Assembly: GCA_964187785.1 (NCBI GenBank)
Contig: OZ076409.1
Span: forward strand, 52,020,001-52,084,000
Source of the DNA: Amphiscolops sp. MND2022
Lineage: Eukaryota
Length of the DNA: 64,000 bases
Reading direction: 5' to 3'
How positions within the stretch are numbered: the stretch's first letter is position 1; every line of letters starts with the position of its first letter. The notes under the pieces were generated by a model that had not been told where the DNA came from, made no database searches, and saw only the letters and a program-made list of their open reading frames with translations. Below, in pieces: positions 11,300-38,319 of the stretch. The translations under genes were made by a program, and so were the position numbers.

Positions 11300-12704
11300 T
11301 ACTCGTAGACAGAATGGCAGTAAAGGGCGCTTGGCAGGACAAGGCTTTATTATTACAAAACATTGATGCTACTGTTTCGAGTGCTGTATTAATAGTTATG
11401 GATTGAAGAGTATACCAAACGCAGAAACGAGAAAGAAACTTTTTGAAATAGCTTGGCCTGTTGGACTACCAGTCCAAATTACGATTAACCAATCAGAGGC
11501 GCTTATTTTATGAAACTGTGTTGACAATGCTGTGTTAACATTTAGATACATTTACGTGCTGAATTAGATCAAAAGCCGAGTACCGCCAAGTGCTTCGCGG
11601 AGACAAACATATCAAAGTTAGCTGGTTACGGCTTTCTTCTCACCAAACTAGAATAGGACTGTTGGATGCATGCTTATATGATATGAAATAATTATGCCAA
11701 ATTTTATTGTTGACCAAGGAAAATAAAATTGAAACATTCCATTATTTGGAGCTTCCACTTCAACTAGAGTTGAAGTATGCCCTCCTTTGGTGATTGCCCA
11801 AAATAAATTCGGACAAGTAGGGCATCATACCTTTTGTAGTAAATGATGTGCATTTAAATATATATATATATCTCGTTGAATTACATGTACGTTAGCTGAG
11901 ATGATGTCCATGTAGCCGAAGTCGGCCTCGTAAACAAAATACCAAAGGCCTTTGATAGTTGTTTTTAGAACGAAGCTGTCGTCACGGCGCTGTTTTCAGA
12001 TAATTGTGATCTATAAACAGATTGTTGACGTTCTCAATTAGTGATGTCATGTAGATTTGGGTATGTATACCAGGAACACGTATTCCCGGGATACATTTCG
12101 TGACACTAATATCAAAACAACCCTCAAAACTGTTGATTTAAATTACATAAATAATTAACTTTTCCTTCTGTTCATCTTTCGTATGAAAACCACTAGAAGA
12201 CGGAAAGTTAAAGCGAGAAGCTGTAGAGAAACGGACATTTTGTCCCATTGTGATAACGTGGACGTGATCCTAGGTGGTGACAAGATTAACTTTATTCAGA
12301 GAGAATTAGCAATTACCACCAACAGTTCAGTTAGTCATCACGACACTGAGGCCTTTTCTCACTCTACCTATAGGGAGAATGCATCACAGCAAATTGAGAC
12401 TAAAAACATTGGAGGTACGGGTGGGACCACTAGGCCGGATAGACTCTTGGAGTCTATGGAAACGTTATCAGGGGAATTAAGTCTCAAGTTATCTCAAGTG
12501 ATCGGTTCACTCATGAACATCCTTCAAGCGCAGATAAGTAGAGCGATCAATTCTGCGATCATCGATAGTGTGATCCCAGAGATACAAAAAATATCGGTTT
12601 GCTGTCTTCTGGACAGAGAGACACCTTGTCCGGAATGTCCACTAATAATCACGATATAGAAACTTTTTCTCACTCTACCTATAGGGAGAATTTTTCACAG
12701 CAAA
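11300..12704 (+). mobile_element. Old LTR relic of a Gypsy family related to the 21510-37201 element, retaining the LTR-encoded Gag N-terminus
   Basis: ORF 12183-12659 (MKTTRRRKVKAR..DNVDVILG..LSLKLSQ..QISRAINSAI..VIPEIQ) aligns by eye with ORF 21499-22053 (MPSTRRQKAKAR..DNLDVMIG..FNLRLSQ..QINRAISTAI..VLPEIQ). Left boundary approximate. Confidence 0.75.
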
Positions 12705-12926
12705 TATATCAACCACGTGATTTTATGGAAAGAAAGTCCATTGGTGATGCAATGATAAATCATGTTTACGAATTCGACGTTTATAGTATCAATAATGATA
12801 TAAGTCTCTCATTGAAATTGCGAGCGATTGCAATCAGTTTCAATTCTTTATTAACTATAGCATGTAAGCGATATATTTATAAGGAACTCTTTTTAAGCTT
12901 TTTTGCCTGATTTGACTATTTTTCAG

Positions 12927-13643
12927 CAATATTCTTCGCCAACCATGGGAGCGTTATCGCAAAATGTGAACGGTTTGAATTACTTACACAATGGCGAAAT
13001 TCCCTCAGAAATCAATTACTTTACCAACCCCGACGATGAATTTTTTATGCAAATGGCATTAACTTCGAATTCAAGAGCTCTCATCGGGAATCGAGGTCAA
13101 AAGTACTGCATGGAAGCATTCTCAAATCTGGAGTTATCCTATGATGATGTAACCACTCATGCTGAGGGGTCAATGGAAGTATCCTTGGGTGATTGCATAA
13201 TACACTTTGTTGAAGTCGTGTTCAACTTTTTCCCTTATTCACTGATGAATTTTCAATTTCTTGAAGAAATTTTCCAAACATTTGTTATGCCCGAGGTTGA
13301 AACCTTGCTGAATAGTTTGCAGGGAAAGTTTTTCTGCAGAAGAGGTGCCACGCGCTTGTTGGAAGTTATTACAGACTTACTCTGGCCCAATTCGAAATTG
13401 ATTGTCGTGGAATCCGAAGAAAGACAGCTGGAAGAAAAAATAGTGACAGAAAAACAAGCAATCTCATCGCTAGCTCGTTTCATAGAGAATAAATCGAAAT
13501 TCATCAACAGCCAACAAGCTTTCAAAATGAGTGCCGAAATTATATCGTCTTTCAGGGATCAAGAAATTAATAAACACTTGATATTTTGTTTCGTTGACAG
13601 TGTATTACTGAAACTGTATCAGTCCAGAGGCAAAGCGAAGTGA
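12927..13643 (+). CDS. Terminal exon of a PXA/PX sorting nexin (SNX13/14/19/25 type, Nexin_C domain)
   Basis: Long ORF preceded by the acceptor tttttcag (12926). Motifs DLLWPN and FRDQEINKHLIFCFVDSVLLKLY match the Nexin_C pattern. Upstream exons not identified. Confidence 0.65.
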   Translation, partial: QYSSPTMGALSQNVNGLNYLHNGEIPSEINYFTNPDDEFFMQMALTSNSRALIGNRGQKYCMEAFSNLELSYDDVTTHAEGSMEVSLGDCIIHFVEVVFNFFPYSLMNFQFLEEIFQTFVMPEVETLLNSLQGKFFCRRGATRLLEVITDLLWPNSKLIVVESEERQLEEKIVTEKQAISSLARFIENKSKFINSQQAFKMSAEIISSFRDQEINKHLIFCFVDSVLLKLYQSRGKAK

Positions 13644-18526: not shown

Positions 18527-19464
18527 TTACCAGTAATTACAACCCCTTCCACCCAACAACTTGAAACAGGCTAAAGATGGGGTTAAAGTTGCGATTGCCA
18601 TTGCTAGTGAGAGCAAGAAAGCGAGACATATTATGACCAAAAAGAGCGCTGCTAGTTTTGGATACCGTTTTTTCGTCGCTTTAAGTTCCCGTATATGCTC
18701 CTTCTGTTTAGGGAGGTACATTAAGAGAGGGGTAGTAACCACCTGCACAATTAGGGTCACCCCGAATGACCAGGCCACTTGTTTGCGATCTTCAAAAGTG
18801 TCGTTGAAGAACCGTTCGTCGGTGCCTATCTCGAAAGGAGCTGCCATACCATTGGCTATTGGGATTCCGATCGTCATCCCTACTATGAATGACGTAACCA
18901 AAAGGCTGTGGAAGAGGGCCTCCAGACCAGTCGGGCAAATCTCGATCAGCATCAGTGACCCCACGAGGTGACCCATGCCCTCGGGGATTGCCGAAATGAC
19001 GTCATCGGCAAAATAGAAGTAAGGGTTTCTTACAACATTGAAGATGGTCAAAAATTCGACTGAGTATTCTGTCACCAGATGCACAATGCGTGAAAAAAGA
19101 AAAATTCCTCTCCAAGATGTGTTTAGGAAAAATGTCTTCAATATATAGACGCCCAAAAGCTCTAATCCAGTTGTCACAAAGGTACTGATGGTTGTAATTA
19201 GAGGGGTCACTTTCGCCCAATTTTTTTTGACCTTTACACCTGCCGGGGACGAAATTCGTATAGTGACTGCCCAGAAAAAGAGGACGATGAAGGTCTGAAG
19301 AACTTCCCTGGATTGGAAGGCGTCCCAAAATGAATACGCTATTTCCTTCATCTTTGGCACGTAGATCACTTTTTTATCATGCAACATGAAAATACTGTTG
19401 AGAACAGCGGTGAAACAGACAATTGACATGATAGCCGAGACTGTTGAGAGGCAGAGATGTAAAA
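18527..19464 (-). CDS. BT1-family (folate/biopterin-type) MFS transporter, last exon
   Basis: Multi-TM ORF with VVRNPYF, EICPTGLEALFHSLL and C-terminal LACFKLLGGRGC. The acceptor position (19464) is inferred. Confidence 0.75.
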
Positions 19465-19577
19465 CTTTATTGAATACCTGTATGCATTCAACATTTCTCG
19501 TTGGAACTACATACACGAAAACTATACATCTTTTAATACTATCTTTATACTATCGTATGCTATACGTCTTTACATCC

Positions 19578-21498: not shown

Positions 21499-22053
21499 TC
21501 AATACTTTCTGTAAGAGCCACGTCCCGTGGTGTCTCTCAAATCACCAACGGACCGTGAATCCTTTTTCAATAATTTTGTTTTCAAGCCAGATGGATTTTC
21601 CCTATTTTCCTGACTACTAGGAGACATACTCATCTCAGTGTCCCTGTTCCCAGAGGAAGACATTGAACTCACAATATTCTGAATCTCCGGTAACACCTTC
21701 TCTGATATGGCGGTACTGATTGCTCTATTTATCTGACTATGTACCATGGCCATCATGGAATCCATCTCTTGAGATAACCTAAGATTAAATTCATTTGAAA
21801 AGGTTTCAAAGGATTGTCTTATGTCGTTTCGACCATGAGGCTCATTTCCTTGAATGAAATTTCCAAGATCATTTCTTGAGTGACTACCAATTTCTATGTC
21901 ACCATTAATGGAAGATTGGTCTATTACATCTGCTAACTCTCTTTCTAAAGGATTTTCACTCCCTATCATCACGTCTAAATTATCCATATCGGACAACATG
22001 TCCATCTCTTTGGATTTTCTAGCTTTCGCTTTCTGTCTTCTTGTGGAAGGCAT
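21499..22053 (-). CDS. Truncated Gag N-terminus (184 aa) encoded by the 3' LTR, ending in flanking host DNA
   Basis: Identical to Gag residues 1-181 except one D/N change. The last codons (RKY, stop) come from the TSD and flank. Expression unknown. Confidence 0.6.
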   Translation of the reverse strand: MPSTRRQKAKARKSKEMDMLSDMDNLDVMIGSENPLERELADVIDQSSINGDIEIGSHSRNDLGNFIQGNEPHGRNDIRQSFETFSNEFNLRLSQEMDSMMAMVHSQINRAISTAISEKVLPEIQNIVSSMSSSGNRDTEMSMSPSSQENRENPSGLKTKLLKKDSRSVGDLRDTTGRGSYRKY

Positions 22054-23140
22054 AAGAGTTTATTGCAAGAGATAAGAATTTAAATTAAGTTCTCAGGCTT
22101 GCAAACAGAGTATGTTGAAACGATTTTAACAAGTTTGAGTATTACGGTATCAAGGAAATTGAAAAAGTCCTTGGGACCTAGGGTCCACGGTATATATACT
22201 CAGGTTTACATGACTTGCAAAATAATGAGGGTCACGTTCTAAAAATAGCCTTCACAGCTATCTAAAAATAGCACCTACTATTTATAGCCATGAAGGCGGC
22301 ATGACGAAAGGGTCACTTCAAAGGGGTGATTTATTCAAGCGCCTTCAACAATTCCATATATAGAAGGATTGTAGGTCCAAGCATCCCTCAAGGCCTTTCA
22401 TATGTGAGGTTTAGCAACATTACATGCAATTACATTTGATCAACCATAACTTACATGTACCAACTCATTAATCTGAGTATTCATGTAAATTATTAATATC
22501 TAGCATCAAATGGTACAAATGGTCCAGTAATCTTCATCAAAACGAGTATTTATTAGAAACACCAATCATAGCCCTTATTTACCACTGTAAATTGCACTTT
22601 ACTTTAATTTGGACTCAGTGTCCATTTGCCGTAAATAGGCAGCAAATTACTACTAGCTGACGGCGCGTGGCCTTAGAGTCCTTTAATTTAGAATACTGCG
22701 CACAGTGAATGAAATGAATGGCGTGTTCTGATTGGCTAAGAATTTGGACGGACTGCGTGTCCAGCGAGACAGGAGAGGAAACATTTGAACTCGTTTCCTT
22801 TCCTGTACGCCTTGGTGTCCAATTTCTTAGCTAATACATTAAATATACAGTGTTTACATGCATCAATGTATCAAAATCAACTTCGTAGTTTTCAACTAAC
22901 CAAATGGTATTTCCGATTAATAATTTGCACAAGATTTTATATATAAGGCTGTCAAAACTGAAAATAGAATAATAGACATGCCGTAAAAATATTACAAATT
23001 CAGTTTGAAGTTTTTGTCCCGTCATGACAATGGGACACATGGTCCTTTCCTCTAGTTTATTGGCAGAGTACCTGGGAGGGCGCGAAAACAGCTGTAATTG
23101 ATGGTGTAAAAGTTCCCATCGCAGGCGGGAGCCTGCGACA
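21510..23140 (-). repeat. 3' LTR of the Gypsy element
   Basis: Direct repeat of 35571-37201 at offset 14061; only about 4 substitutions seen by eye. Confidence 0.97.
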
Positions 23141-23891
23141 CTCCCCCTGGCATGAGAAGAAAAGTTCCGGCTGTCATCCCGTCTAGAAATGCTCTCTTTC
23201 TTGCTTGCGTCTCCGCTAGCGTTTCTCCCACTGCGACCGTCTTGCTGATGTAATCATCTGCAGCTTCCTCGCGTATTTGATGTGTTGATTTACCACAGAT
23301 CACACAGTCCGAATAGGTCGATTCAGCTGTAGGCACCCCGATTTCCAAGTCATTAAAATGATTGGCCATAGAATCAATCGTCGGGGCATCTGATACGTAA
23401 GACCCACTCGATGTCGGTTGAGGGCAGTATTGTCCTCTGTCTGCATCTGGTGGGGATAGTGGCGTATCGACCATCGGGACAAGATTGCGGCACAAGTTTA
23501 TCGGGTGGTTCCGCTTAATTCTACTGTCTGCCCTTAGGGGCCCATTGCCTCTCCCCAGGCTAAAGTAAGTCTGGTCGAACTTAGGAAACGGAGGCAAGTT
23601 TGGCCTTCTGTGTTCGTTTGCCTGATTCGCGGCAGAAGAAGAGGTGTAGGGAATCGCTATGGGCTCGGACATCTGTGTTTCGACGCATAAGGCCATCTGA
23701 GCAACTTCTTCCGACTCATCCTCCGAGGAGGACAAGAAATCGGTTATCGAGGAAACGCTCCTGCATTCCATTGTCTCCTCTTCGTCGCTTGAAATGTAAA
23801 TGATCCCATCTCCTGGGGCAGCTCCTTGGAAGTCCTCCGGATAGGTCCTTTCGGGTTCGGAGTCATACAAAGGCGAGACAAGGCTATTCAT
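23052..23891 (-). CDS. Accessory ORF3 of the Gypsy element (279 aa, unknown function, not env-like)
   Basis: ATG-initiated open frame in the env position. Acidic N-terminus with IIYISSDEEE, a CVIC motif, no signal peptide or TM segment. The last 89 nt lie inside the 3' LTR. Confidence 0.75.
   Translation of the reverse strand: MNSLVSPLYDSEPERTYPEDFQGAAPGDGIIYISSDEEETMECRSVSSITDFLSSSEDESEEVAQMALCVETQMSEPIAIPYTSSSAANQANEHRRPNLPPFPKFDQTYFSLGRGNGPLRADSRIKRNHPINLCRNLVPMVDTPLSPPDADRGQYCPQPTSSGSYVSDAPTIDSMANHFNDLEIGVPTAESTYSDCVICGKSTHQIREEAADDYISKTVAVGETLAETQARKRAFLDGMTAGTFLLMPGGVSQAPACDGNFYTINYSCFRALPGTLPIN
23141..23148 (-). other. Polypurine tract
   Basis: Minus-strand AGGGGGAG directly abuts the TG of the 3' LTR. 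Confidence 0.85.
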
Positions 23892-25181
23892 ATCGAATCT
23901 TTTTTTGAATATTTTCTTCGCTATCTTGAAGGAATTTAGTGGTTTTCAATTCAGAAATGTTTGAAGAGGACGGCTGAATTCAAGAATGAAACTGAGAGGA
24001 ATAGCGGATTTATTTCCGACAGTCCGTGAGTCTCTTCGTTTCGTTTTTCCCGGGGTTCCGCTACCTCTCCAAGTAATAACTTCTCGACAACAAAATTCTT
24101 CCCTTTTGAATTCTTTCATCAAGCCGCAGAGTTGCTTTGTAATTGTCGGCGCCGCCTTAACTATCTATCAACAACTAAGTTAACACTTCTAACTTAAGAG
24201 CGCGGTCTCGAGTGTTTATTAACACTCATCAGATACTTGAGGATTTCAAGTGGGTGAAGATATGACGGCCAGCCACGCCGTCCACCATCGATATGCTCAG
24301 CCAATAAGAAAGCAGCAAAATTTCTCCCAAGCTAACATGGCTTCTCAAGGTCGCGAACCCGTATAAGGAATGATATAAAATGACCTTGAAAATAAAATAA
24401 AATAAAATAAAGTGAAACAAGATAAAATCATGAAATAACTCTGCAAAATAATAAAGTTTTCGAAATAAATAGGGGAAATGTAGATATCGCTGGCGGACCC
24501 TATCCACATAATGCCATAAATTGTAAATAGTAATAAATTTGACACCAAATTGTACAGCCACGAACTCCAATCTTGACATCTTGTCACATCGCCAATTCTT
24601 CTTTCAATTCTTTATCATCCAGTTGTATTATTCACTTCTTGTATTATCCAGTATTTAATCACCACATTTACTCTACATCGTAATTAATCCATAGTTAGTT
24701 TCAGTCTACAAGTCGTTTTTATTTATATATTTCTTTATATCTCCATCCCACTTTCATCTTCGGACTCAGCGTCCACACGTCCCTAATCCTACGGATCCGC
24801 AAGGAATACTCTGTCTAATCGACATCCAGTCCAGCTCGGTGATCTTAGTCAGTTTCAACATCCCCAACTTTCTTCACACATACGGTGCAGCAACTTCCAT
24901 CTTCATCGCTACATACTACTTCAGAAGCCGATTTGTGTCTTTGCGAGGATCTACTGATATACTGCCGGTACTGAATTCCAAGTAAGTAGTTGCTCTTCTT
25001 TTGTTTTGAATAGAGATTAGGCTTGATCAGGGCTTTAATCACTTTCATTGACTTCCTGTCCATATAACACAAGCGTTCACAAGTGTTCAAACAAATCAAC
25101 TTCCGGAAGATTTTTAAATGCGGTAAAATGGATTTTAATTCAGGAAGGTTCCCGCTTGATTTCTTCTCTTTTTATTTAGAC

Positions 25182-26876
25182 ATGTCGTCAGAGAACGTTC
25201 TCGAAGAAGCTACTACAATACCTCCTGGCACAGAGGGACAAGAACAGTCAGCAAATCCCCTCCCTGCCGTTGTCAGCTTAACACAAGTCATTCCCCAGGA
25301 GACTTTAACCCCCAGTCCATCAACAGAAGAGAGTGTCAGTGCATATGTAGAGCGCACATTACAAGAATTAGGGCCCCAGCATGAAGTTTGCTTCAACCCG
25401 ACCATTGAGGCCGAATCGACAGAGCCAACTCCGGAACAGCCCATACCAAAGGCATCCGTCTCAGATGCAATCGACAAGCCCATTGAAGGGAATGAGGGCC
25501 AGCCAGACGTATTAGTGGAGACTGAAACTCATGATGAAGAAATGAGTGAAGAGGGCCAATTTAAGCTCAAAGCAGACTACTTTCAAACTGATACTAGTTC
25601 GGTAGAGGAGCTTTACGATAGTGCCGGGGCGGATACCACGACTCGTAAGCTCACATTTATAACTTCTGGGGTTGCTGATCCAGAGGAGGAGGGACAAGAA
25701 GATCTGGATACAGGCCGCCTAGCTGAGACATCCAGTGTTGTTACTCGCGTACGACAATCGAAGGAAAAGACTGGCCTTACTGTCCCTGGTCGAGCATTAC
25801 TTAAGAAGTATTTCGATGAGGCCCCACCGGTTCACTTGCCTGTTGGACACCGAACCCTGGCTCTTAGTGAGCCACAAGTCCATGCATTACTCAAGGTTGT
25901 CTCAGATGAAGCCGTTTCGTCGTCGTTGCACACGATGCATTCACTGGTCAACGAAGTTCTCAAAGCCGGCAGTAGGATGAACAGGGAATGGACCGTACCC
26001 GGAGGTTCTCGGGGTCCCCGTACAAATTCTGAGAGCTCAGCAGACGATACATCCCGAGGCGGACACACTACCGATGACTATACAAGTGGGGCTTTAAGTT
26101 CCGATGACGATTTCATCACCCGGCGACCCACACTTCCCCAAATGTCGACGGACAATCAGGCTACTACGACTGAAGCAGTTACGTCCAGTGAAATGATCCC
26201 TAGTCCGGGGTTTACTGCCTCTGACTACAGGCCATTATCCCAGTTGTGTTCTCCTCAATCACCCGAGGGTCCCAAAAGACCCGTTCGAAAACGCAGGAAG
26301 GTGGCTGGGTCTACAGGAAAAGTCATGAAAGAAGCTTATTTTAAAGGCATAAAATGGACCAAAACCTTTGTGACCGGCCCCTTGGACCCAGAGCACAATA
26401 AACACAAATTTTATTGTCAAATCTGCAAGTCCAATATTTCCATGTTCTCAAAGGGGGCCAGGGAAATCGTCAGGCACTACCAGTCAGAGTCGCACCTTCG
26501 AAAAGACCAGCGCTGGAGGTACGAAAACCTACGGCTTGTGGACCCGGTGACTGGCCAAGTGAGACACGAAGTCCGGGGCAGAGACGGACAAGTCCTTACG
26601 CCAGTCGAGTTGGAGAAGGAAAAACCCCTTTTTGAGAACGCCGTTTTAGTTGACATAGGGGACAAGCACCCCTTTTACGACGACTACATTGCCGGAACAA
26701 TCGCTACACCCAGCTCTGAAGAAATTAGAATTTGTACTCAGATTTCCCTGATTGGCCACTTCGTCCCTCAGTGTGGAGACGTCCTGTTACTCCAGACTTT
26801 GTGGAACCAGATTGGCATAGCAGCCAACCACAAGGAACCATTTTCACCTCTCGAGTGGGGCGCTACCACTTTGACC
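25182..26876 (+). CDS. Antisense cargo gene, coding exon 1: acidic low-complexity region, NLS, BED/C2H2-like zinc finger
   Basis: ATG at 25182 follows a pyrimidine tract and AG (25178-79). Contains PKRPVRKRRK and FYCQICK..IVRHYQSESH. Phase-0 donor GTAAGT at 26877. Confidence 0.85.
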
Positions 26877-26958
26877 GTAAGTATTCTTTCCTTTCTGACT
26901 CCGTTATCGTCGTAAGGTTTCCAATTGTCATCGTCTCATCTATCCCTTTATATTTCAG

Positions 26959-27444
26959 ACTATCTTCCACCACATTTTCCTCTGCGGAAGGAGCGACATA
27001 GCACACCACGTGAACGTCTCCGGCAAGTACTCCCTGGAGTTTGAACCTTCAGGCCTTCATTGTATTGTGTCAATCCGTTTCTGGAAGGCAGACACTTTGT
27101 GTACCGTTCGCCTCATGCAGTACCGCCTCGCCAGTGACCATGCCGCTGGACTGTTGACAGCAATAGCGCGCATCTTCTCATTCTTGTCAGTACAGCCTCA
27201 GTTGGTCAGTGTGTCCTGCTGTCCGTCGGAACTCATTCCTATTTTGGAACAGTCGGGCCTGTTAACGAAAGGGATCCAGTACCCATTTAGATTTGATACA
27301 TTTTCTTTGCCCAAGCTCATGCATCAGAAATGGGGAAGCGTCTTCGGAGGGATCAACTTTTTCTCTCAACTCCGATTCTTAGTCACATTCCTAGATGGTT
27401 GTCAGGACGAGATCTGGGCCACTCAGTCTCCTGAACTCGGCAAG
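26959..27444 (+). CDS. Antisense cargo gene, coding exon 2
   Basis: Acceptor tatttcag (26958), open frame TIFHHIF..PELGK, phase-0 donor GTAAAT at 27445. Confidence 0.8.
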
Positions 27445-27518
27445 GTAAATATAATCAAATCTGTTTTGGCGGGTGGACTAATAGTCAGATTTCGCTCCCA
27501 AGTAATCCTTTCGTTTAG

Positions 27519-27735
27519 GCGATTTCAACTTGTTCTCTTGAAATCACATCAGTTCCTGCAATATGTTCCGAGCTGCTGGCGGACTGGAGGGCGGTGCATG
27601 ATTATATGACCCGAGTTGCTCCGACGCAAGAAAACCAGGGAGTGAGGCATAGACCCCAAAGTTTAGAGTGGAGCATAATTGGTGATGAGTTCTTTCATCT
27701 CAAACTCGAATTCTTTGGCCGAATTGTCCGTGATT
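27519..27735 (+). CDS. Antisense cargo gene, coding exon 3
   Basis: Acceptor cgtttag (27518), open frame AISTCS..LLADWRAVHDYM..HLKLEFFGRIVRD, phase-1 donor GTTAGT at 27736. Confidence 0.75.
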
Positions 27736-27884
27736 GTTAGTATTTTCTTTTCTTTCATGGGCCAATTATGTGTATAAGCATAGTTACTCGCATTCAAGCT
27801 CACGTAGGGCCATTATTGTCCGAACGGACTAGGGGTCTACTCATCTATCACTAGTGTATTCTCAAAAGGTTCGTTGTTTTGCAG

Positions 27885-29038
27885 ATACCAAGTGCTTCGA
27901 GGGCAGTCTCTCTCAGCGGAAAGACTCTGGCTTCCTTACGTACCGCGAGTTACGGCAGTTCGTGCGGAAGCTCTGCTACAGATCCTTGCTTCCAAAACAT
28001 TTGCCTGATGAGGCCGACTGGACTGGGCTACACTCATTACAGGGAGAGTCGCTCACTCAGCTTTCGTCACGGGATTTCCTCAATCGGTTAAAACTTAAAG
28101 GAGACCTGGACGCAGCTTGTCGGGCCAGAGCCAAACGTGAGGCCGACGATCCCCAAAGTGTGTACACTGATTCTGAAGCCGCGGTTGAAGCAGTTAAGGA
28201 AGAATTTGCCTCCAAGGCTCGCAGTTACCTGGTTCGCCTTCTGGAACGTTTCCTTGATGACATCAGCTTCAATTCTGACATCGTTAAGGGTATGAGTTGC
28301 TTTGACCCTGTGGTCCTCCTTTCCGTGAGCTTTGATCAAGCTGCTCTTTGTTTTTCTACCCTCTATTACTCCTTCAGCTTGCGAGGATGGGTGTCCAATA
28401 CCCCAGAGACTGAGGCCCGGGATGAGTACCTTGAGTTCGTGGACTTCTTCCGTACCAAGTACCACGACTTTAAAGATGTTCCAGAAACTTTTACTGACAT
28501 GATTGGGTTACTGACTCCCATGCCTGAGTTGAGGTCCCGTCGGCACTTGTTCCATTTATTCCAGTTGAGTTGTCTTTGCTTGACTTCCCAGATTCCCAAG
28601 CTGCCAGCTATCAAGTTCCAGGGCGTAAATAGCAATGATCCTCGCTGTCGATTGTCCAGTGTCTTACTTCCTGCTCAGTCCTATTTAGCAAACGTGGTTG
28701 GGTCAGTAGCTGTATGTACAACTGAGGCTTATTTGGAGAAATATCGCGCGCTTGAGTCCAGATTCATCAGTGGGAATGTTGCAGGTGACCCCTGGGTCCA
28801 CATTGACAGCTTTGGCAAGGCCAATTTCCTTAAGACTCTTATTTCTGCTCAGAAGGCTTTGAAAGATAAACCTCGCTCTGCTAGTCGGTCACCTTCGTCA
28901 TCGGTATCCAGTACTGGATGTCAGCGGCGTAAACGCAGTCCAATCAAAGATAAGAAAGGAGTGAAGTTTGGGGCTGTCTCCTTTTCTAAAGCACCCACTG
29001 CCAGTGATACTCTGTTGCCCGGGAGCTCTAAAGACTAA
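27885..29038 (+). CDS. Antisense cargo gene, last exon (hAT-transposase-like helical C-terminal half)
   Basis: Acceptor gttttgcag (27884) joins in phase 1 to the long ORF ending TAA at 29038. The four exons total 3552 nt, or 1183 aa plus stop. Confidence 0.85.
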
Positions 29039-29236
29039 ATGTACATAGAGTACATTTGTTTCATATTCTGTCAACTTGTATTTATCATATTATCTCGTTT
29101 GTTGAAATTTCTTGAGTTTATTTGTAGTATTTCTTGATTTTTGTTTTCATTTGTATCAGTTGGGAAGTCCAGTGAAAAAATAGTAAGAAGATCAAGTAGC
29201 CTAAAAGGCTGTCTGGACGTTAATTTACATATCTAG

Positions 29237-32200
29237 TTAATATCTGTATTCGTCAGTGAAGTTGGGGGTTGGGTTAGGTCGAAGATTATATTTCCCTCCT
29301 CTAGGGCTAGAAGTTTCTTCATCTTTTCCATTTTCCGATATTCCGGGCACGGTAATATCTACGCCTCCTTTTGAAGCAATTTCCGCATTTTCTAAATCAT
29401 TTGTGACGTCATTTTGATTTGCCGTCCCACGTGGCGTTTCGCTCAGTGGGGACGACGCGTCACGGCTGCCAGCCGGTCTCGGCCTTATTTCATTCTCGTT
29501 GACGTCATTTGCATTTTCCGCCCCAGTAGTCGATTCATGTGGAAGGGACGACGCGTCACGGCTGCTAGCCGGTCTCGGCCTTATTTCATTCTCGTTGACG
29601 TCATTTTCATTCATTCTCTCGCTGCTGCATTCACTTTCATTTACTCTGCTGCTTTCATTCTCGGTGACGTAATAGTCGACTCCACCATTCGTGGCGTCTT
29701 GCGGCAGACGCGTGGCCGTGTCTGGCCAATCATTTTTCTTCGGCTCGAATTGCTCGTATTCAAAGTCCGCTTCCCATGAAATGGTATACAAATCATCTTG
29801 CGGTATTACGATTTCTTCATCAGGCTGTAATTTCTCTTCTTGGTATTTGTCCTCTAACGGAGCATTTGGGCCAAATTTTTTGAGCCTGATCCGGTGCAAA
29901 ATCTGCGTTTTATTCGTATTTAAACGACGCACTATGTAATTGTTATTTGGTAGAGTTTTTTGAACGACAAAAGGACCAATCCAACGGAAGTCCCTGAATG
30001 GTATTTTAGAGCCTTGACTATCCGCTTTTGGTTGAAGAACAAAACAATAGTCCTTTTCTTGTAGCGGAGCCGCTTTGGCCTTGCGGTCGTAGTATTCTTT
30101 GTACTTTAAATACGACTGCATAATATTCTTTTTGGTCTGATCAATGAGGATTTGCGTCCTCTGCTGTAATTCTTCCGCGAATTCAGTCGTCGGTAGGAAA
30201 TTTTTGTTAGGATTATTCCCTAATTTGTGATCCAGGACGTTATAGGGAATGCGGCCATGAAAGACTTTGCTAGGCTCACAACCAATACTAGCGTGATAAG
30301 TAGTGTTATAGTTAAGCACAGCTAATGGTAAATATTTGTGCCATTGACGACGGTATTCCCCTGAGGCCATCTTTAGGTTGGTTTTTAAAGAGGCGTGTGT
30401 CCTTTCGAGTTTACCAATAGTTTGCGGATGTTTAGTAGTGGCACACTTCAATGTGATCCCCAATATTGCAGTAATTTCTTCTAAAATTTTTGATGTAAAT
30501 GCGGATCCCTTGTCCGTGATGAGTGTTGTTGGCAAATACGAATGTTTCGTCATGATGTCAATTATCACCTTGGCTACGTTTGCGGCTGTTGCCTCAATTA
30601 GTGGGTAGGCGAATAAATATCTTGAAAATACATCTATTGCCGTCATCACCGTTTGGTATCCACCGCTAGTTGGTAAGTTTGGCAATAAATCGATTTGCAT
30701 GGCATCTTCTGGGCCTAGGTCCCATTCAGGTAAATTCAGTAATTCTGGGGTGATTACCGTGTTGGGGACTCTTTTGTCCTTGGCACATGTTTCGCAGCCT
30801 TCTACCCATTTTTTGACGTGTTTAGCAATTCCGGGGTAGTAGTATTTCTGGCGAATTTCTTGTAGCATTTTAGAAATGCCCGGGTGTCGATGTGCCGTGC
30901 CATGTATTGCTTGTAATAATTCTTTGAGCAAATGCTTTGGCAATAAGATTTGATGATATTTGACCTGTCCGGTTTCATCGTAGTACTGCCGTGTCACTAT
31001 CTCGTCTTTGAGGATTATTCGGTCTATGTTGTTCAAGTAATACTTGTACCGAATATCCTGTTGAAGGATTTCTTCAGAGTATTCTTCTTTTTGAAGTTTC
31101 GCCTTCAATTGGAGGAGAATCGGGTCTCTGGACTGTTCAAGCAGTATCTGATTTGTTCTTCTTAATTTCTGCGTGAAATTAGTAATCTCTTCGACGGTAT
31201 TTTCTGATATAGCGTCAATTTGGATTACTGTCTCAGGGACTATGAGACCTTTTTTGGATTGTTGTTTCCGTTTCCAAATCTGTTCTTCTGTTTCATTGTC
31301 CTCCTCAGTGAAGAAAATTGGCTCTTCTTCTGATACGCCGGCCGATTGGACATTGACTTCGATTGGTCTAGTTTCTACGTCCTCTCGTATTTTCAGGACC
31401 AACTTTTCGGTAGGGTCCATTTCCATGCGGGACAAGTAGTCTGCCGCTGTATTGTTTTTGCCTGGAATGTGAGCTATAATGAAGTTGAATTGAATGACAA
31501 AATCACAAGCATTCCAGAGAGGCGGTGGAATTATCTTTGTCTGGAAGAACCTCGTGACCGATTTGTTATCTGTGAGGATAATCACGGGTTGAGGTGTTCC
31601 CCAGAAGATATGTCCAAACTCCTTAAATACATAATATATAGCTAGGAATTCCTTTGCATATATCGACATTTTAAGTTGAGAAGGCGTGAAAGTTTTGGAT
31701 CCATATGCAATCGGCGCATAGGACTTTTTAACAGAAGTGTATTTCTGATTTGGGTCGTCTTCGGTCAATATGGCGTAACCGGCTGCTGTAAAACTCGCGT
31801 CAGTCATAAGGACCAGTTGTTTGTTCGGCAGAGGTTGTTTCAACGCCAATTGACTACATCGGTCTAAATCGCGGTTGATCTCATTAAATTGTTCAACTAG
31901 CTCTTGCGTAACTAGTACTTTTTCATCCTTTTTGAGCAATTGGAAGAAGGGAACTAGTTTTTCGGATAGCCTTGGAATATAATTCCTGTAGTAATTGAGG
32001 AAACCAAGGTAGCGTTGTAAGGCCTTCTTGGACTTTGGGAATTTCGTCTTTTCCAAGAAGTTAGTGATTCTTTCTTTTTGGGGTTTTACGCCTTCAGGTG
32101 TAATGGTTCTCCCAAGAAAGTCAATTTCAGTAGCGCCGAAATGGCACTTGTGCATGGACAATTTCAATCCTGCTTCTCTGATACATTGGAAGGTTGCTCT

Positions 32201-34402
32201 TAAGTTGACGATAAGCTGGTCGGCGTCTGTCGCCGCAACACCAATATCGTCCACATATTGAGCACATTGGTCTGCTTTTATGACACGATCCAAGTATTCC
32301 CTCATGAAACTGGAGAAGGCCGACAGGGCTCTACTGAGTCCTTGGGCTAATCTTCTATATGCAAATGTCCTGCTAGCGAAGTTAAATGCTAGCATTTCAA
32401 TCGACTTCTGGTCTGCCATAGGAAGGCAATGATAAGCTTGAGAACAGTCAAGTTTGCAAAAGAGCTTTTTGCCTGCCATATGTTGCGCCGCATCCGTCAG
32501 GGTACTGACTGGGTGATTGTTGTTGATATAATCGTCTGAGATGAGATTATTTATTTTCCTCAAATCAACCAACAGTCTCAATTTCCCATTGGGCTTTTTC
32601 TGCGCGAAGATGGGACTGGCATACTTTGAGAATGATAATGTCGTTATAATACCATATTTATGAAGTAACGCCAGTTCGACCAATATGTCCTCTTTGAGGT
32701 TGACTGGTGTAGGTAGGCTCTGACTGTAGGCAGGTGATTCGTCTTTTGGGGTCAGTTTGACCGTAAATTCCTCATTGACACCAATGTCAAATCTATGGCG
32801 CGCAAAGATGTCATGGAATTCCACTAATAGAGTTTCTATTTGTCTGATTTCATGTTGTTGTAACATTGAATCCTTCCAATCAAAATTACTGAGGAATTTT
32901 CGACGAGATTCCGCATCGTCGTGCGGGTTGAGTTGTTCTAAACTTTGCAGATTTCGTAATTCTTTGAGAATTCTTTGTTGTATTGGGGTGTGGGTCGTTT
33001 CGTCCCCTGGGTTTTCAGGCGTCGGGAACCAATATTGTTCGTATTGGTCATTATTTCTGTTAGCTTTAAGAAGGCTACTTATATAATAAATAGCGTCGTC
33101 TTCATTTTCATTCAGTAAGTGCCAGGTGGACACTGGGTCTATTGGCCTGACGTGTTTCATCTGTTCAGGGGTCATCACTGAGAAGTTTGCAATGTGCATC
33201 CCTTTCTTTATTTTATAGGGTTGATCAGTGAAATTGTTAACGTGTATTCTCATAACCCCTTCGTGTAGTGTGACTATGGCGGCGCAGAAGGTTATGTCGC
33301 CTTCTTCGTGCAGAAGATCGCTGGGTTGCAATATGCCCGTAACTGCATTTTCTGCGTAAATTTGTGATTGAATGGGTATGACCACATGGTCATTGGGCGG
33401 AATTGTGACATCCTCAGGATTGAGGATGGGTTCCAAAACATTTGAGTATTTATGGTCAGCCGTCTTGAGTTGCATCGAAAAATAGGGGAAGTTGAGTATA
33501 CCTTGGCGCATATCCAGGACAGTGTGGTTCCTTTGAAGGAACATTAGTCCAATTATGGGGCTTGACAGTTTTTCCATTACAATGAAAATTTCGTGAAATT
33601 CTATGTCGCCCACTTCGAATTTTAGTTCGACTGTGCTCTTTGGGGTTTCTAAGTCTCCATTTGCGACCATTATTTGGAAAGATGGGGCAGGACCTTCTTT
33701 TACAATGGATTGAGGGGCCAATAGGCGTATTTTCCTGAGGTCTGCCTCCGGGATTGCACTGGAGTGAGCTCCAGTGTCTATCAGGCCAACTAGAGTTAAT
33801 TCCCCAAAGTCCATTGGGAAATAGAGCATTCGTCGTTTGAATTTAAGTCCAAGGTTTGTTGAAAGGGGAACGTATGGTAATTCTCCTTCGTTGGTCACTA
33901 GAAGGTGTAAGAAGACTGTCTCGTCTAAAAGACTATTAGGAGCCTTGTGGTCCTCCTGTGTGTGTATGGTGTCTACTTCTTGTATAGTTGCCTCAAAGTT
34001 CGGCTGCCAAAGATCAATGAGGGCCCGAGACAGTGTGTTATCTTCAATGTCTGGGTCGTCCTCGTCGTCAGTTGGGGGGTAATCTTCATTTCGAAATTGT
34101 AAATTGGTTTTGTCATATAGTTCTTCGTCCCAGTATGGGTCTTTGCCATACTCGGGGTCATAGTATTGAGGGTTATAATCTTCGACAGTTTTTAAAGGGC
34201 GAAAGTGAGTTTCCAAATCGTTGCGGTTACTGTTCCGTCGATATAAGTATGGATGATCACTGTGGATGATATATTGAGTTTCTCTGCGGGCGTCGGCCAT
34301 CTGCTGCTGCCAGACAGTCGATGGCATCCCTGTGGTGTCGTTTTGAGTTTGTTTATATGTAATGTTTGCAGGGTCAGATATGACGTACTGTCGTACTGAC
34401 AT
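29237..34402 (-). CDS. pol: Pol polyprotein: aspartic protease, dUTPase-like spacer, RT, RNase H, integrase with GPF motif
   Basis: LIDTGA; LDCSQAYH and YVDD; LMTDAS, KEFLA, TDNKS; HGTAHRH..CETC, IDLL, TDKG, LERTH; WIGPFVV; terminal YNLRP. 1721 codons without a stop. Confidence 0.97.
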   Translation of the reverse strand: MSVRQYVISDPANITYKQTQNDTTGMPSTVWQQQMADARRETQYIIHSDHPYLYRRNSNRNDLETHFRPLKTVEDYNPQYYDPEYGKDPYWDEELYDKTNLQFRNEDYPPTDDEDDPDIEDNTLSRALIDLWQPNFEATIQEVDTIHTQEDHKAPNSLLDETVFLHLLVTNEGELPYVPLSTNLGLKFKRRMLYFPMDFGELTLVGLIDTGAHSSAIPEADLRKIRLLAPQSIVKEGPAPSFQIMVANGDLETPKSTVELKFEVGDIEFHEIFIVMEKLSSPIIGLMFLQRNHTVLDMRQGILNFPYFSMQLKTADHKYSNVLEPILNPEDVTIPPNDHVVIPIQSQIYAENAVTGILQPSDLLHEEGDITFCAAIVTLHEGVMRIHVNNFTDQPYKIKKGMHIANFSVMTPEQMKHVRPIDPVSTWHLLNENEDDAIYYISSLLKANRNNDQYEQYWFPTPENPGDETTHTPIQQRILKELRNLQSLEQLNPHDDAESRRKFLSNFDWKDSMLQQHEIRQIETLLVEFHDIFARHRFDIGVNEEFTVKLTPKDESPAYSQSLPTPVNLKEDILVELALLHKYGIITTLSFSKYASPIFAQKKPNGKLRLLVDLRKINNLISDDYINNNHPVSTLTDAAQHMAGKKLFCKLDCSQAYHCLPMADQKSIEMLAFNFASRTFAYRRLAQGLSRALSAFSSFMREYLDRVIKADQCAQYVDDIGVAATDADQLIVNLRATFQCIREAGLKLSMHKCHFGATEIDFLGRTITPEGVKPQKERITNFLEKTKFPKSKKALQRYLGFLNYYRNYIPRLSEKLVPFFQLLKKDEKVLVTQELVEQFNEINRDLDRCSQLALKQPLPNKQLVLMTDASFTAAGYAILTEDDPNQKYTSVKKSYAPIAYGSKTFTPSQLKMSIYAKEFLAIYYVFKEFGHIFWGTPQPVIILTDNKSVTRFFQTKIIPPPLWNACDFVIQFNFIIAHIPGKNNTAADYLSRMEMDPTEKLVLKIREDVETRPIEVNVQSAGVSEEEPIFFTEEDNETEEQIWKRKQQSKKGLIVPETVIQIDAISENTVEEITNFTQKLRRTNQILLEQSRDPILLQLKAKLQKEEYSEEILQQDIRYKYYLNNIDRIILKDEIVTRQYYDETGQVKYHQILLPKHLLKELLQAIHGTAHRHPGISKMLQEIRQKYYYPGIAKHVKKWVEGCETCAKDKRVPNTVITPELLNLPEWDLGPEDAMQIDLLPNLPTSGGYQTVMTAIDVFSRYLFAYPLIEATAANVAKVIIDIMTKHSYLPTTLITDKGSAFTSKILEEITAILGITLKCATTKHPQTIGKLERTHASLKTNLKMASGEYRRQWHKYLPLAVLNYNTTYHASIGCEPSKVFHGRIPYNVLDHKLGNNPNKNFLPTTEFAEELQQRTQILIDQTKKNIMQSYLKYKEYYDRKAKAAPLQEKDYCFVLQPKADSQGSKIPFRDFRWIGPFVVQKTLPNNNYIVRRLNTNKTQILHRIRLKKFGPNAPLEDKYQEEKLQPDEEIVIPQDDLYTISWEADFEYEQFEPKKNDWPDTATRLPQDATNGGVDYYVTENESSRVNESECSSERMNENDVNENEIRPRPASSRDASSLPHESTTGAENANDVNENEIRPRPAGSRDASSPLSETPRGTANQNDVTNDLENAEIASKGGVDITVPGISENGKDEETSSPRGGKYNLRPNPTPNFTDEYRY
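29449..29606. repeat. In-frame duplication with a 96-bp period in the integrase C-terminal tail
   Basis: gacgacgcgtcacggctgc..gacgtcattt at 29451 and 29547; peptide NDVNENEIRPRPA(S/G)SRDASS occurs twice. Confidence 0.9.
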
Positions 34403-34431
34403 CTTGTTACATATTTGGAGTCGTGGCGAAA

Positions 34432-36114
34432 TTAGTTTTTTGAGTCCGTTTTTCGTGGGTTTGATTGGCTCGAAGATGCAGTTTCGGGGTTAGTTGATTT
34501 TTTAGACAACTTTTCATCGCCGGAGTTTTCATCGGCTTTATCTTCGGGTCTTGTCCTTTTGGGACGTAGATGTGCTCCAGCCCCTTTCCAGCATCTTTCA
34601 ACGGGGTGATTTTTCTTTCCGCAAGTAGGACATTCTGGGTATGTGGGACGTTGGGGCTTTTTGCCATTTTTGTCCTCCAATTCTTTCTTCTTTTTCAATT
34701 TGGGGCAGCTCTTATAAAAGTGGCCTGTGGCTTTACAATAAGAGCATTGTGCGTCCTTATTAGTATTTATGCCATTAGAGAGCAGATTGTTGTTACTGGT
34801 GGACGCAGAGGCCATTGTGGCGATTGGCAAATCGTCTGACTCTTCTAATGCGTTGAGTTCAAGCTCTCTTTCAAGATGAGCGACGATTTCCTCATATGTC
34901 CCGTTCTCCAGGCGGGCCATATTGACAGATCGTTTTAATTTTGGAGGCAGTTTTGCATACAATAAGCTGTCAATCATGCTTTTTGCATTCTCACCGAAAG
35001 CTTTTTCTGCCCCCTGGTTCAGTTCTTCTAAGAAATCCGGCAGTTTCATGGTATTCGGATCGAAAGTCAGCCGATGCCATTTGTGTTTTGCCGTTGCTTG
35101 GGATTCCGGTTTGACATATTTTCTCCGGAATATGATCAGCACGTCCTCGAGTGTTTGGCGGTTAATTGAGTTTATGTTCCTGAAGGTCTGCAAGGCTCCT
35201 TTCCTGAGCAGTGAATGGAAATGGTTAATTTTCATTTGCTCTGTCATGGCCGGTTGCATTTTGATCATTGTGTGGAACAAATCTTCAAAGAGTTCGAATT
35301 TCTCACTCTTTCCGTCAAACGTCATAGGGGTTGTTTGGACAGGCCGGATAGTCATCGTTTGGGGTTTGTTTTGCAAATTGACTAGTACATCAGCCAATCT
35401 ATTGAGCGGGTCCTGAGGTGGCTCTGTGACCTCTGGTTCTGGCGCTGGCAGAGTGGTGTCCAAAGAGACATTGTGGTTAGATTGCTGTCTCTCTAGGTTC
35501 GGGATTGAGTGGATTCGTCCAGTAAGAAATTCAGGTATAGGCTGTTGGGCTTCGTTAGCTCCTGTCACCATGTAAGAGCCACGTCCCGTGGTGTCTCTCA
35601 AATCACCAACGGACCGTGAATCCTTTTTCAATAATTTTGTTTTCAAGCCAGATGGATTTTCCCTATTTTCCTGACTACTAGGAGACATACTCATCTCAGT
35701 GTCCCTGTTCCCAGAGGAAGACATTGAACTCACAATATTCTGAATCTCCGGTAACACCTTCTCTGATATGGCGGTACTGATTGCTCTATTTATCTGACTA
35801 TGTACCATGGCCATCATGGAATCCATCTCTTGAGATAACCTAAGATTAAATTCATTTGAAAAGGTTTCAAAGGATTGTCTTATGTCGTTTCGACCATGAG
35901 GCTCATTTCCTTGAATGAAATTTCCAAGATCATTTCTTGAGTGACTACCAATTTCTATGTCACCATTAATGGAAGATTGGTCTATTACATTTGCTAACTC
36001 TCTTTCTAAAGGATTTTCACTCCCTATCATCACGTCTAAATTATCCATATCGGACAACATGTCCATCTCTTTGGATTTTCTAGCTTTCGCTTTCTGTCTT
36101 CTTGTGGAAGGCAT
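34432..36114 (-). CDS. gag: Gag (560 aa), starting inside the 5' LTR
   Basis: Capsid-like FDGKSEKFELFEDLF region and two CCHC knuckles (CSYCKATGHFYKSC, CPTCGKKNHPVERC). The first 181 codons lie within the LTR. Confidence 0.95.
   Translation of the reverse strand: MPSTRRQKAKARKSKEMDMLSDMDNLDVMIGSENPLERELANVIDQSSINGDIEIGSHSRNDLGNFIQGNEPHGRNDIRQSFETFSNEFNLRLSQEMDSMMAMVHSQINRAISTAISEKVLPEIQNIVSSMSSSGNRDTEMSMSPSSQENRENPSGLKTKLLKKDSRSVGDLRDTTGRGSYMVTGANEAQQPIPEFLTGRIHSIPNLERQQSNHNVSLDTTLPAPEPEVTEPPQDPLNRLADVLVNLQNKPQTMTIRPVQTTPMTFDGKSEKFELFEDLFHTMIKMQPAMTEQMKINHFHSLLRKGALQTFRNINSINRQTLEDVLIIFRRKYVKPESQATAKHKWHRLTFDPNTMKLPDFLEELNQGAEKAFGENAKSMIDSLLYAKLPPKLKRSVNMARLENGTYEEIVAHLERELELNALEESDDLPIATMASASTSNNNLLSNGINTNKDAQCSYCKATGHFYKSCPKLKKKKELEDKNGKKPQRPTYPECPTCGKKNHPVERCWKGAGAHLRPKRTRPEDKADENSGDEKLSKKSTNPETASSSQSNPRKTDSKN
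34435..34441 (-). promoter_or_regulatory. -1 ribosomal frameshift heptamer A AAA AAC
   Basis: Gag ends TCA AAA AAC TAA. The -1 frame reads CTA ATT TCG..AAG ATG without a stop into the pol ORF. Confidence 0.85.
35559..35570 (-). other. Primer-binding site TGGTGACAGGAG
   Basis: Starts with TGG immediately after the terminal CA of the 5' LTR. The cognate tRNA is not identified (similar to a Leu-type PBS). Confidence 0.85.
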
Positions 36115-37201
36115 AAGAGTTTATTGCAAGAGGTAAGAATTTAAATTAAGTTCTCAGGCTTGCAAACAGAGTATGTTGAAACGATTTTAACAAGTTTGAG
36201 TATTACGGTATCAAGGAAATTGAAAAAGTCCTTGGGACCTAGGGTCCACGGTATATATACTCAGGTTTACATGACTTGCAAAATAATGAGGGTCACGTTC
36301 TAAAAATAGCCTTCACAGCTATCTAAAAATAGCACCTACTATTTATAGCCATGAAGGCGGCATGACGAAAGGGTCACTTCAAAGGGGTGATTTATTCAAG
36401 CGCCTTCAACAATTCCATATATAGAAGGATTGTAGGTCCAAGCATCCCTCAAGGCCTTTCATATGTGAGGTTAAGCAACATTACATGCAATTACATTTGA
36501 TCAACCATAACTTACATGTTCCAACTCATTAATCTGAGTATTCATGTAAATTATTAATATCTAGCATCAAATGGTACAAATGGTCCAGTAATCTTCATCA
36601 AAACGAGTATTTATTAGAAACACCAATCATAGCCCTTATTTACCACTGTAAATTGCACTTTACTTTAATTTGGACTCAGTGTCCATTTGCCGTAAATAGG
36701 CAGCAAATTACTACTAGCTGACGGCGCGTGGCCTTAGAGTCCTTTAATTTAGAATACTGCGCACAGTGAATGAAATGAATGGCGTGTTCTGATTGGCTAA
36801 GAATTTGGACGGACTGCGTGTCCAGCGAGACAGGAGAGGAAACATTTGAACTCGTTTCCTTTCCTGTACGCCTTGGTGTCCAATTTCTTAGCTAATACAT
36901 TAAATATACAGTGTTTACATGCATCAATGTATCAAAATCAACTTCGTAGTTTTCAACTAACCAAATGGTATTTCCGATTAATAATTTGCACAAGATTTTA
37001 TATATAAGGCTGTCAAAACTGAAAATAGAATAATAGACATGCCGTAAAAATATTACAAATTCAGTTTGAAGTTTTTGTCCCGTCATGACAATGGGACACA
37101 TGGTCCTTTCCTCTAGTTTATTGGCAGAGTACCTGGGAGGGCGCGAAAACAGCTGTAATTGATGGTGTAAAAGTTCCCATCGCAGGCGGGAGCCTGCGAC
37201 A
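35571..37201 (-). repeat. 5' LTR of the Gypsy element
   Basis: TG..CA ends. On the minus strand: CCAAT near 36792, TATAAATA at about 36347-36340, AATAAA at 36125-36120. Confidence 0.97.
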
Positions 37202-38319
37202 CTTTCTATCCATGATTCATCCTTGATTAATGGGTTCACCATACCGAGAACAAATTTATGATGAATTCACGTTTTGAAATAGTTTGTATCAAAAATTTTT
37301 TGTTTGCTCTTTAAAAGACTTGACAGTAATTGATGCTTTCAAACACTAGTAATGAAGTTTCTGTTCAGAAAGTTATTTCTCGAAAAGTTTCTCAGGAATC
37401 CTTCCTTTACTTTACTGGGTTTTTACAGCCAAAATTTTCATCAACATAGTTCTTTCCATTCTAATTACTCCGCTGAAATGTTTGAAAAATTTCACATTTG
37501 ATGGAGCATTCCATGGTTAACAAAAACATGTGATTTTTTGTCATTAATCTTCTTGGGTGATTCATGGGTTATTCTGATTGAAGCCACGATCAAGGATGAA
37601 TATCGACACTGCAGAATGTGAAGACAATCATGAAAATTTGCCATGAAACGGGATATTAAGGTCATGGAAAAGTCGAGATAATGGTTGAAACGTCGAGAAC
37701 GAGCCTAGTTGGTCAACCAGGGAACAAAAAGCGCAGTGGAACGACGGAAGTTGACCTTTCAGAAATATATCCAGACAGAGTTGCGTGCTTCAGCATAACC
37801 ATACCCAACACACACACATTGCTCCAGCCCTGCTTATAATCTACATGGAAACGAATCAATCTCTCATCTGCAGTTTTCTTCTACTTTTTGCCGTTTTCCA
37901 AACTAACATTTAAAAATATAAAGACGGAAAACAAAGCCGAAAAAAAATAGGTTTGTAGGGTGCACAGTGGTTTCTTGCATTTTCGAACAAAATGCTTTTT
38001 ATGAAGAGCAAAATAGGAGATAACTTTTCGATTTTTAACCATTTCACGCATTTTTGGTACGTTTTTTGAATGATTCCGTGGGTATGATAATCGACAGTTC
38101 AACAGAGCAATTAGCTTTTTAGCAAATTTTTCTATGGCAAAGAGTTCGTTTTTCAATTCAAAAAACTTCCCAAAATGTACCAAATTTTTCTGCTCCAACA
38201 AATTCAAATTGTTGCGTCTGATTGTGTTATCGTCTCCAAAGAAATGCGCAGAATAATATTTTGATCAACTAAAGTCATATATTTATTTATGCCATAGTGA
38301 GTTTTTCAAATATAGGGTA

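Follow-up and report, generated by a model that had tools for sequence, protein, structure and literature searches.

Background

Several long terminal repeat (LTR) retrotransposons carry genes besides gag and pol. The antisense open reading frames (ORFs) of plant Ty3/Gypsy elements are conserved, present in most copies, and nuclear, and that of Grande has its own promoter; their function and origin are described as open (PMC7264820, PMC11963269). The plant ORFs show no similarity to other transposable elements (TEs), which was read as evidence against an origin by nested TE insertion (PMC7264820). Captured ORFs have also been reported in LTR elements of rotifers, planarians, orchids, and Arabidopsis (PMC5408684, PMC6431247, PMC9289625, PMC13547354, PMC5418596). 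Among TE-encoded or TE-derived regulators, VANC acts in family-specific anti-silencing through a short DNA motif (PMC6719617), and the host-domesticated ZBED1 binds DNA, self-associates by its hAT domain, and keeps its target genes active (PMC7471704). The present work concerns a 64,000-nucleotide stretch of the assembly of Amphiscolops sp. MND2022 (GCA_964187785.1, contig OZ076409.1, positions 52,020,001 to 52,084,000; hereafter the window), in which a Ty3/Gypsy retrotransposon carries an antisense gene whose protein appears to descend from a hAT transposase. Such a gene, spliced, catalytically dead, and domesticated by the retrotransposon, had been proposed in a first-pass annotation of the window.

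The antisense gene and its introns

The gene lies on the forward strand at 25182..29038, where four exons are separated by three GT-AG introns of 82, 74, and 149 bp (phases 0, 0, and 1). When joined, the exons give 3552 nt, an open frame of 1183 codons plus a stop, exactly as had been annotated. The open frame by itself is weak proof, since it is likewise obtained with 1077 GT..AG combinations at introns 2 and 3; it is the comparison with relatives that fixes the exon structure. Exon 1 (25182..26876, residues 1-565) encodes a disordered N-terminal part, a conserved helical motif, a nuclear localization signal (NLS), and a zinc finger. Intron 1 (26877..26958) leads to exon 2 (26959..27444, residues 566-727), which sits where an RNase H-like core would be expected. 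Intron 2 (27445..27518) is followed by exon 3 (27519..27735), in which the hAT insertion domain begins, and intron 3 (27736..27884) by exon 4 (27885..29038), which encodes the helical insertion domain and the C-terminal region.

When the window was compared with 23 relatives, the splice sites were found to hold their position and phase in most of them. The GT donor of intron 2 is present in 22 of the 24 sequences, the exceptions being one with a deletion at the site and one without the intron. The AG acceptor of intron 1 is present in 19 of the 21 sequences in which the anchor matched (it is absent in L034 and L036), and the donor of intron 3 is damaged in L033 and L039. The anchor used for the intron-1 donor itself demanded GT and is consequently no unbiased test of that site. 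In the relative L038, introns 2 and 3 are both missing and the frame continues exactly across the predicted joints; in all 10 distant relatives, an extra intron splits exon 3. Nucleotide identity in four relatives is 42-73% for the introns versus 60-84% for the conserved exons, with 49-76% for the disordered 5' part of exon 1. From these patterns we infer that the antisense gene is spliced. In some copies of a second family (L023 2158-4641, reverse strand), intron 1 contains no stop and preserves the frame, so that an open frame of 827 aa reads through it.

The start of the gene is uncertain because a conserved, in-frame ATG (25128) and a strong acceptor (25179) lie just upstream of 25182. Two candidate introns of the 5' untranslated region, with donors near 24982 and 25123 and the acceptor at 25179, were also seen (24982-25181, forward strand). 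At the other end, the stop of the gene is 198 bp from that of pol, in agreement with the earlier estimate of about 200 bp. The annotated location between pol and the 3' LTR is correct as a position, but the gene is not adjacent to the 3' LTR, from which it is separated by 2 kb containing another conserved ORF.

Descent from a hAT transposase and loss of the active site

An N-terminal C2H2 (BED-like) finger and, after the expected place of the core, a collinear helical insertion domain are both present in the protein. The finger (C-x2-C..H-x5-H, residues 412-438; 26415..26495, forward strand) matches the N-terminal finger of a hAT subgroup when this region is aligned alone by hhalign (E 8.7e-5), and all four of its ligands are kept in 16 of the 16 relatives that cover it; the Pfam zf-BED profile gives no match for it. 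It is preceded by an NLS-like basic run (residues 365-373; 26274..26300, forward strand), and 79 of 120 database relatives have a basic run. Both finger and NLS had been noticed in the first pass. Within the otherwise fast-evolving N-terminal part, a conserved helical motif is found at residues ~204-260 (25791..25961, forward strand), an LP.GH-type motif being present in 75 of the 120 database relatives.

hAT ancestry is supported solely through the subgroup of hAT-type transposases with a PHSNA..ER.FS motif (loci L061, L066, L083, L085, and L106), by profile-profile and reverse-profile tests with controls. This reference subgroup was chosen by a motif after the protein had been seen; Pfam PF05699 is at or above its cut-off in three of the four members scanned. 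The profile match is collinear and significant (local E 3e-6, with 6e-4 for the zinc finger; global E 7e-10). In the insertion domain, the alignment covers 209 columns (probability 87.9, E 3.3e-6) with a score of 61 versus at most 27 in 13 controls, and the global comparison scores 53 versus at most 10.7 in 9 controls. In the reverse test, 16 of the 17 relatives score higher with the hAT profile than any of the 358 decoys. Hermes gave the longest alignment within the top 50 of 48,161 chains in a structure search, and an unsteered language-model search returned hAT-clan families exclusively (exon 2 lead 0.82).

Thus, the resemblance proposed earlier holds for this subgroup but not for the eight Ac/Buster/Tip100-like hATs of the present genome, none of which matches the accessory protein. 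Pfam and Foldseek gave no hAT link and a PDB sequence search no match; the Pfam hAT profiles are unmatched in 100 exon-4 and 23 exon-2 sequences. The C-terminal dimerisation region PF05699 is found in none of the 100 exon-4 sequences at E <= 0.1, and this region alone aligns non-significantly. The predicted structure of exon 4 is all-helical and confident (pLDDT 88.9). The claim that the hAT fold is kept holds for just two parts, the finger and the helical insertion region, and not for exon 2, which alone gives no significant alignment to the hAT core.

The catalytic Glu of the hAT enzymes aligns with the hydrophobic residue Ile1042 in exon 4, a column in which 82 of 86 sequences have Val or Ile, and the ER.FS motif containing this Glu occurs in 0 of 100 exon-4 sequences. 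In 17 sequences, the RW motif and the His of CxxH are absent, there being no His at +3 in either register. For the two Asp, the register was set by eye and is uncertain: the first position is Glu in 13 of 17 sequences, Asp in 1, and Gln or Ala in 3, while the second is Cys or missing. A conserved Gly-Cys at 652-653 can be placed, again by eye, either as the Cys of CxxH (as in hhalign and in the first-pass annotation) or at the former place of the second Asp, and in neither exon 2 register does a DDE triad appear to be left. The proposed loss of catalytic residues is consequently borne out on these alignments for the Glu, the CxxH His, and RW, but is less secure for the Asp pair. Taken together, the comparisons show a gene of hAT descent that is old, heritable, and constrained and that lacks the canonical active site.

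A hAT-type family (L125 366-2901; also L050, L061, and L122) has 15-bp terminal inverted repeats (TIRs), 6-bp duplications, and copies that are >99.7% alike, and weak matches to the subgroup transposase elsewhere in the genome (e.g., G000:C12:25138020-25138835) may be donor-related elements.

The gene belongs to the element

A DNA search of the genome, in which 40 of 1272 candidates were scored, gave at least 32 full-length copies at >=96% identity, the window included, together with copies at 68-80%. In a second family, all 150 scored candidates (of 5249) match, and there are many further families at 30-50% identity. All 29 fetched relatives, down to 30-40% identity, have the gene tail-to-tail with the end of pol (L022 reaches pol by just 16 matching residues at the edge of its locus), and none lies outside an element; as these relatives were picked via the gene, the result is that the gene was never found alone, and says nothing of the frequency of gene-less elements. 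Like the plant ORFs, then, this is an antisense frame between pol and the 3' LTR that is conserved across copies.

Trees of the gene and of the integrase (155 integrase residues, 14 loci) contain the same three clades, with some differences within clades. The two sets of distances have a correlation of 0.54, and 0 of 5000 permutations gave one as high. Between clades, the gene is 39-43% identical versus 71-83% for the integrase, and within clades it is constrained. For residues 381-1126, the ratio of nonsynonymous to synonymous substitution rates (dN/dS) is 0.08-0.10 against 12 close copies, which are not mutually independent, 0.07 and 0.09 against two older copies, and 0.04-0.12 in three other pairs, the more distant pairs being saturated. 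The constraint on exon 2 (0.04-0.10) matches that on the other parts of the gene. For comparison, dN/dS is 0.02-0.08 in the integrase and 0.16-0.28 over the N-terminal 380 residues of the accessory protein. Exons are unbroken throughout in 8 of the 12 copies at ~96%. No credible TIR pair with a target-site duplication (TSD) was found around the gene (TSD scan at 8 bp), as the first-pass annotation had stated.

Position, co-divergence with the integrase, and purifying selection thus support domestication by the retrotransposon, as had been proposed, and not a nested insertion. Comparison of the copies shows that an ancestor of this Gypsy clade acquired a hAT-type transposase gene, antisense between pol and the 3' LTR, with loss of its TIRs. 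The gene has since been kept under pol-like constraint through 60-70% amino-acid divergence and through intron gain and loss. Exon 4 also matches 450 cluster representatives without names, and the 10 clusters looked up, of 10, carry none; because two representatives find a best match of only 28% and 42% in the present genome, the sequences suggest that relatives of the gene exist in other genomes.

The carrier element and its surroundings

The carrier is a whole Ty3/Gypsy element of 15.7 kb on the reverse strand (21510..37201), with TG...CA ends and a 5-bp TSD (21505-21509 and 37202-37206); a second copy (L005-L006) likewise has a 5-bp TSD. The 5' LTR (35571..37201, 1631 bp) is immediately followed by a TGG primer-binding-site-like sequence. 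The 3' LTR (21510..23140), preceded by a short purine tract, shows 4 differences from it (0.25%). The open gag frame (34432..36114, 560 aa) has only weak matches, below cut-off, to DUF1759/Retrotrans_gag and zinc knuckles. It begins within the LTR, so that each LTR holds ~180 gag codons (21499-22059 and 35571-36120, reverse strand). The pol frame (29237..34489, reverse strand; 1750 aa from stop to stop) encodes, in a Pfam scan, protease, a dUTPase-like domain, reverse transcriptase, RNase H, and integrase, which is the Gypsy order. A 96-bp tandem duplication lies in the variable C-terminal tail of pol (29404-29611). No env-like Pfam match was found among the 7 frames scanned.

The element has two accessory genes arranged head to head. 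The second, a sense ORF of 279 aa (23052..23891, reverse strand), ends within the 3' LTR and has no Pfam match. A hydrophobic-acidic word, which we take to be similar to a SUMO-interacting motif, and a CxxC are kept in 9 of 9 aligned copies, and the dN/dS of 0.14-0.17, although near saturation, indicates selection. Copies that share 95% identity in the antisense gene are only ~55% identical in this ORF; because of this disparity, the region of the ORF is apparently either exchanged between subfamilies or evolving much faster. Between the two genes, a non-coding block at 25010..25181 (forward strand) shows higher conservation than the exons (76-91% versus 49-84% in four relatives) and is a candidate internal promoter or binding site. 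It contains GGAA words, presumably ETS-like, and shows neither a stable RNA fold nor an Rfam family match. A second conserved intergenic block (24180..24700, reverse strand) has a pyrimidine tract plus AG (24386-24385) in 7 of 7 aligned copies, a candidate sense-strand acceptor for the second ORF.

Elsewhere in the window, direct repeats of ~1.3 kb that start with TGTCACA and are 97% alike (41153-42497 and 44056-45347) look like a short non-autonomous LTR element. A 166-aa frame (12159-12656, forward strand) resembles the start of gag by eye and is probably an old LTR remnant, with no Pfam match. An intronless 340-aa frame (18527-19549, reverse strand) matches the BT1 transporter family (E 2.4e-7), and a 248-aa frame (12897-13643, forward strand) has a weak, below-cut-off match to the sorting-nexin C terminus. 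Two tandem units of ~848 bp, 91% alike, lie at 52962-54661, and parts of them recur elsewhere in the window.

Possible functions

Introns of an antisense gene stay in the packaged RNA. Since that RNA is the opposite strand, the introns survive retrotransposition; the gene consequently needs its own spliced mRNA, and the protein made from it is able to act in trans. These considerations have led to a model in which the gene would be transcribed, probably from the block at 25010-25181. As the alignments show, the protein still has the finger for DNA binding, the NLS, and the scaffold of the helical insertion; the chemistry of cutting has been lost, the exact state of the two Asp being less certain, and a long disordered region has been added at the N-terminus. 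In the nucleus, the protein would bind, as an oligomer and in a sequence-specific manner, to integrated copies of its own family and, by analogy with ZBED1/DREF and VANC, might recruit host chromatin or transcription factors to keep that family expressed or unsilenced. This non-cutting scaffold is the function we tentatively prefer, judging its chance to be a little short of even. The invariance of the finger ligands, as opposed to the catalytic motifs, counts in its favor. In addition, two internally deleted relatives, L035 (3490-4543) and L039 (3533-4555), in which gag or protease is fused to the last part of pol and most of pol is gone, have kept the gene. A divergence between clades that is faster than that of the integrase, combined with constraint within clades, is as expected for a family-specific specificity factor. 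However, several observations tell against the model. L035 and L039 are decayed in places, so that retention of the gene may just reflect where the deletions fell. Exon 2 alone aligns with the hAT core no better than shuffles do. An acidic residue is present at 592 in 17 of 17 sequences and at 594 in 14 of 17, and Cys 653 in 16 of 17, making a changed activity possible. Finally, the conserved block may be no more than a promoter. A bolder and rather unlikely extension is that the antisense gene and the head-to-head ORF form a counter-defence cassette, in which the dead transposase, as a family-specific anti-silencing factor, would recognise element DNA and the pair would divert SUMO-dependent silencing, which would have favored the diversification of the clade into dozens of families in this 1-Gb genome (assembly 1.07 Gb).

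Other functions are conceivable. The protein could be an integration helper, one that recognises either the ends of the cDNA or some class of host sites and through this binding tethers the integration complex or brings it into the nucleus. Transposases bind element ends and target DNA, and here both the finger and the NLS are retained. A role in nuclear import or retrotransposition has been proposed for the plant antisense ORFs (PMC7264820). Yet a protein made from a separate antisense mRNA lies outside Gag-Pol, the gene diverges far faster than the integrase, and copies are spread over all the large contigs, where no clustering is evident by inspection; we regard this role as unlikely. Somewhat less likely again is self-restraint, in which the protein or the antisense transcript represses the element and so limits harm to the host. 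TE products are known to exert self-control (PMC6719617), antisense RNA is able to feed silencing (PMC7264820), and transcription here is convergent with pol; the carrier families are, however, very numerous and in part recent, and protein-level selection in every exon rules out a role of the RNA only. The acidic residues and Cys 653, the constraint on exon 2, and the captured nucleases of rotifer LTR elements (PMC5408684) would fit a changed enzyme, an RNase H-like core with a non-canonical site, whose substrates would be the element's RNA or DNA intermediates. Against it stand the loss of the Glu motif from every exon-4 sequence, the Val or Ile in its column, and the missing CxxH His and RW, which make it improbable.

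The remaining alternatives question the origin or the status of the gene. If the hAT resemblance were convergent or due to chance, the gene would come from an unrelated host protein; the silence of the Pfam hAT profiles and of the PDB sequence search, the lack of a match to the eight resident hATs, and the post hoc choice of the subgroup by its motif all leave room for this. Two separate regions nevertheless match in the correct order and far above the controls, all but one of the relatives rank above the decoys, the language-model search gave hAT-clan families only, and Hermes gave the longest alignment in the structure search, so that we consider it very improbable. Nested insertions are common (PMC7264820) and hATs are plentiful in this genome, as would suit a passive nested hAT insertion, or else a host gene benefiting the host alone. 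This last explanation is largely refuted, and the least credible of all, given no TIR or TSD, a dN/dS far below 1, co-divergence with the integrase, and the finding of the gene in no fetched relative outside an element. The function of the ORF becomes testable, because the biochemistry of the ancestor is well known: the finger is defined, there is a candidate for the cis block, and the families supply many natural variants.

Comparison with known systems

Hosts are known to domesticate transposases; in the present case, a mobile element of a different class has done so. In a literature search by title and start of abstract, with most subscription journals, Repbase Reports, and supplements outside its scope, no transposase-derived spliced gene was found in an LTR element, and a prior description is possible. 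Annotation misses such genes, given that Pfam, PDB, and Foldseek searches yielded nothing here.

The accessory protein aligns end to end with the PHSNA..ER.FS subgroup in the order of finger, insertion domain, and C-terminal region. One family of that subgroup is mobile with 15-bp TIRs, and the reference family, which we take to be 'hAT6' of Repbase, duplicates 6 bp rather than 8 bp (with a perfect duplication in 3 of 4 copies). In contrast, the accessory gene has no TIRs, its protein lacks the catalytic Glu, the CxxH His, and RW and has an extra N-terminus of 380 residues, and it is moved by retrotransposition. ZBED1/DREF likewise derive from hATs and employ the finger and the hAT scaffold to bind specific DNA sequences and regulate genes (PMC7471704); they are, however, fixed genes that serve the host, whereas the present gene is kept by a multicopy mobile element, and the likeness is drawn without direct sequence comparison. 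The VANC proteins of VANDAL (Mutator-like) elements and the Gypsy-borne plant mobile domain are also lineage-specific TE accessory proteins (PMC6719617, PMC13547354, PMC5418596), but both have another fold and origin (MAIN/PMD-related), and VANC is borne by DNA transposons; the analogy is one of function only. Among animals, the ORF3s of rotifer LTR elements (DEDDy exonuclease, GDSL lipase; PMC5408684) and planarian Burro (PMC6431247) provide Gypsy-like elements with a dUTPase-like domain and captured genes after pol. The rotifer ORF3s differ in being enzymes with intact catalytic residues, and the words 'transposase' and 'intron' are absent from the accessible text of PMC5408684.

The closest arrangement is that of the plant Ty3/Gypsy ORFs, Grande gene23, RIRE2, Retand TRP28 (PF04195), and PvRetro13, which are also antisense and between pol and the 3' LTR (PMC7264820, PMC11963269). 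Neither PF04195 nor the plant mobile domain was found by Pfam in the accessory protein sequences. The present gene has 2-4 conserved introns across its relatives, while the accessible part of PMC11963269 does not contain the word 'intron'. Antisense ORFs are already known in plant LTR elements; the present case adds a traced TE origin, from a transposase, for a kind of accessory ORF whose origin is listed as unknown in the plant cases (PMC7264820).

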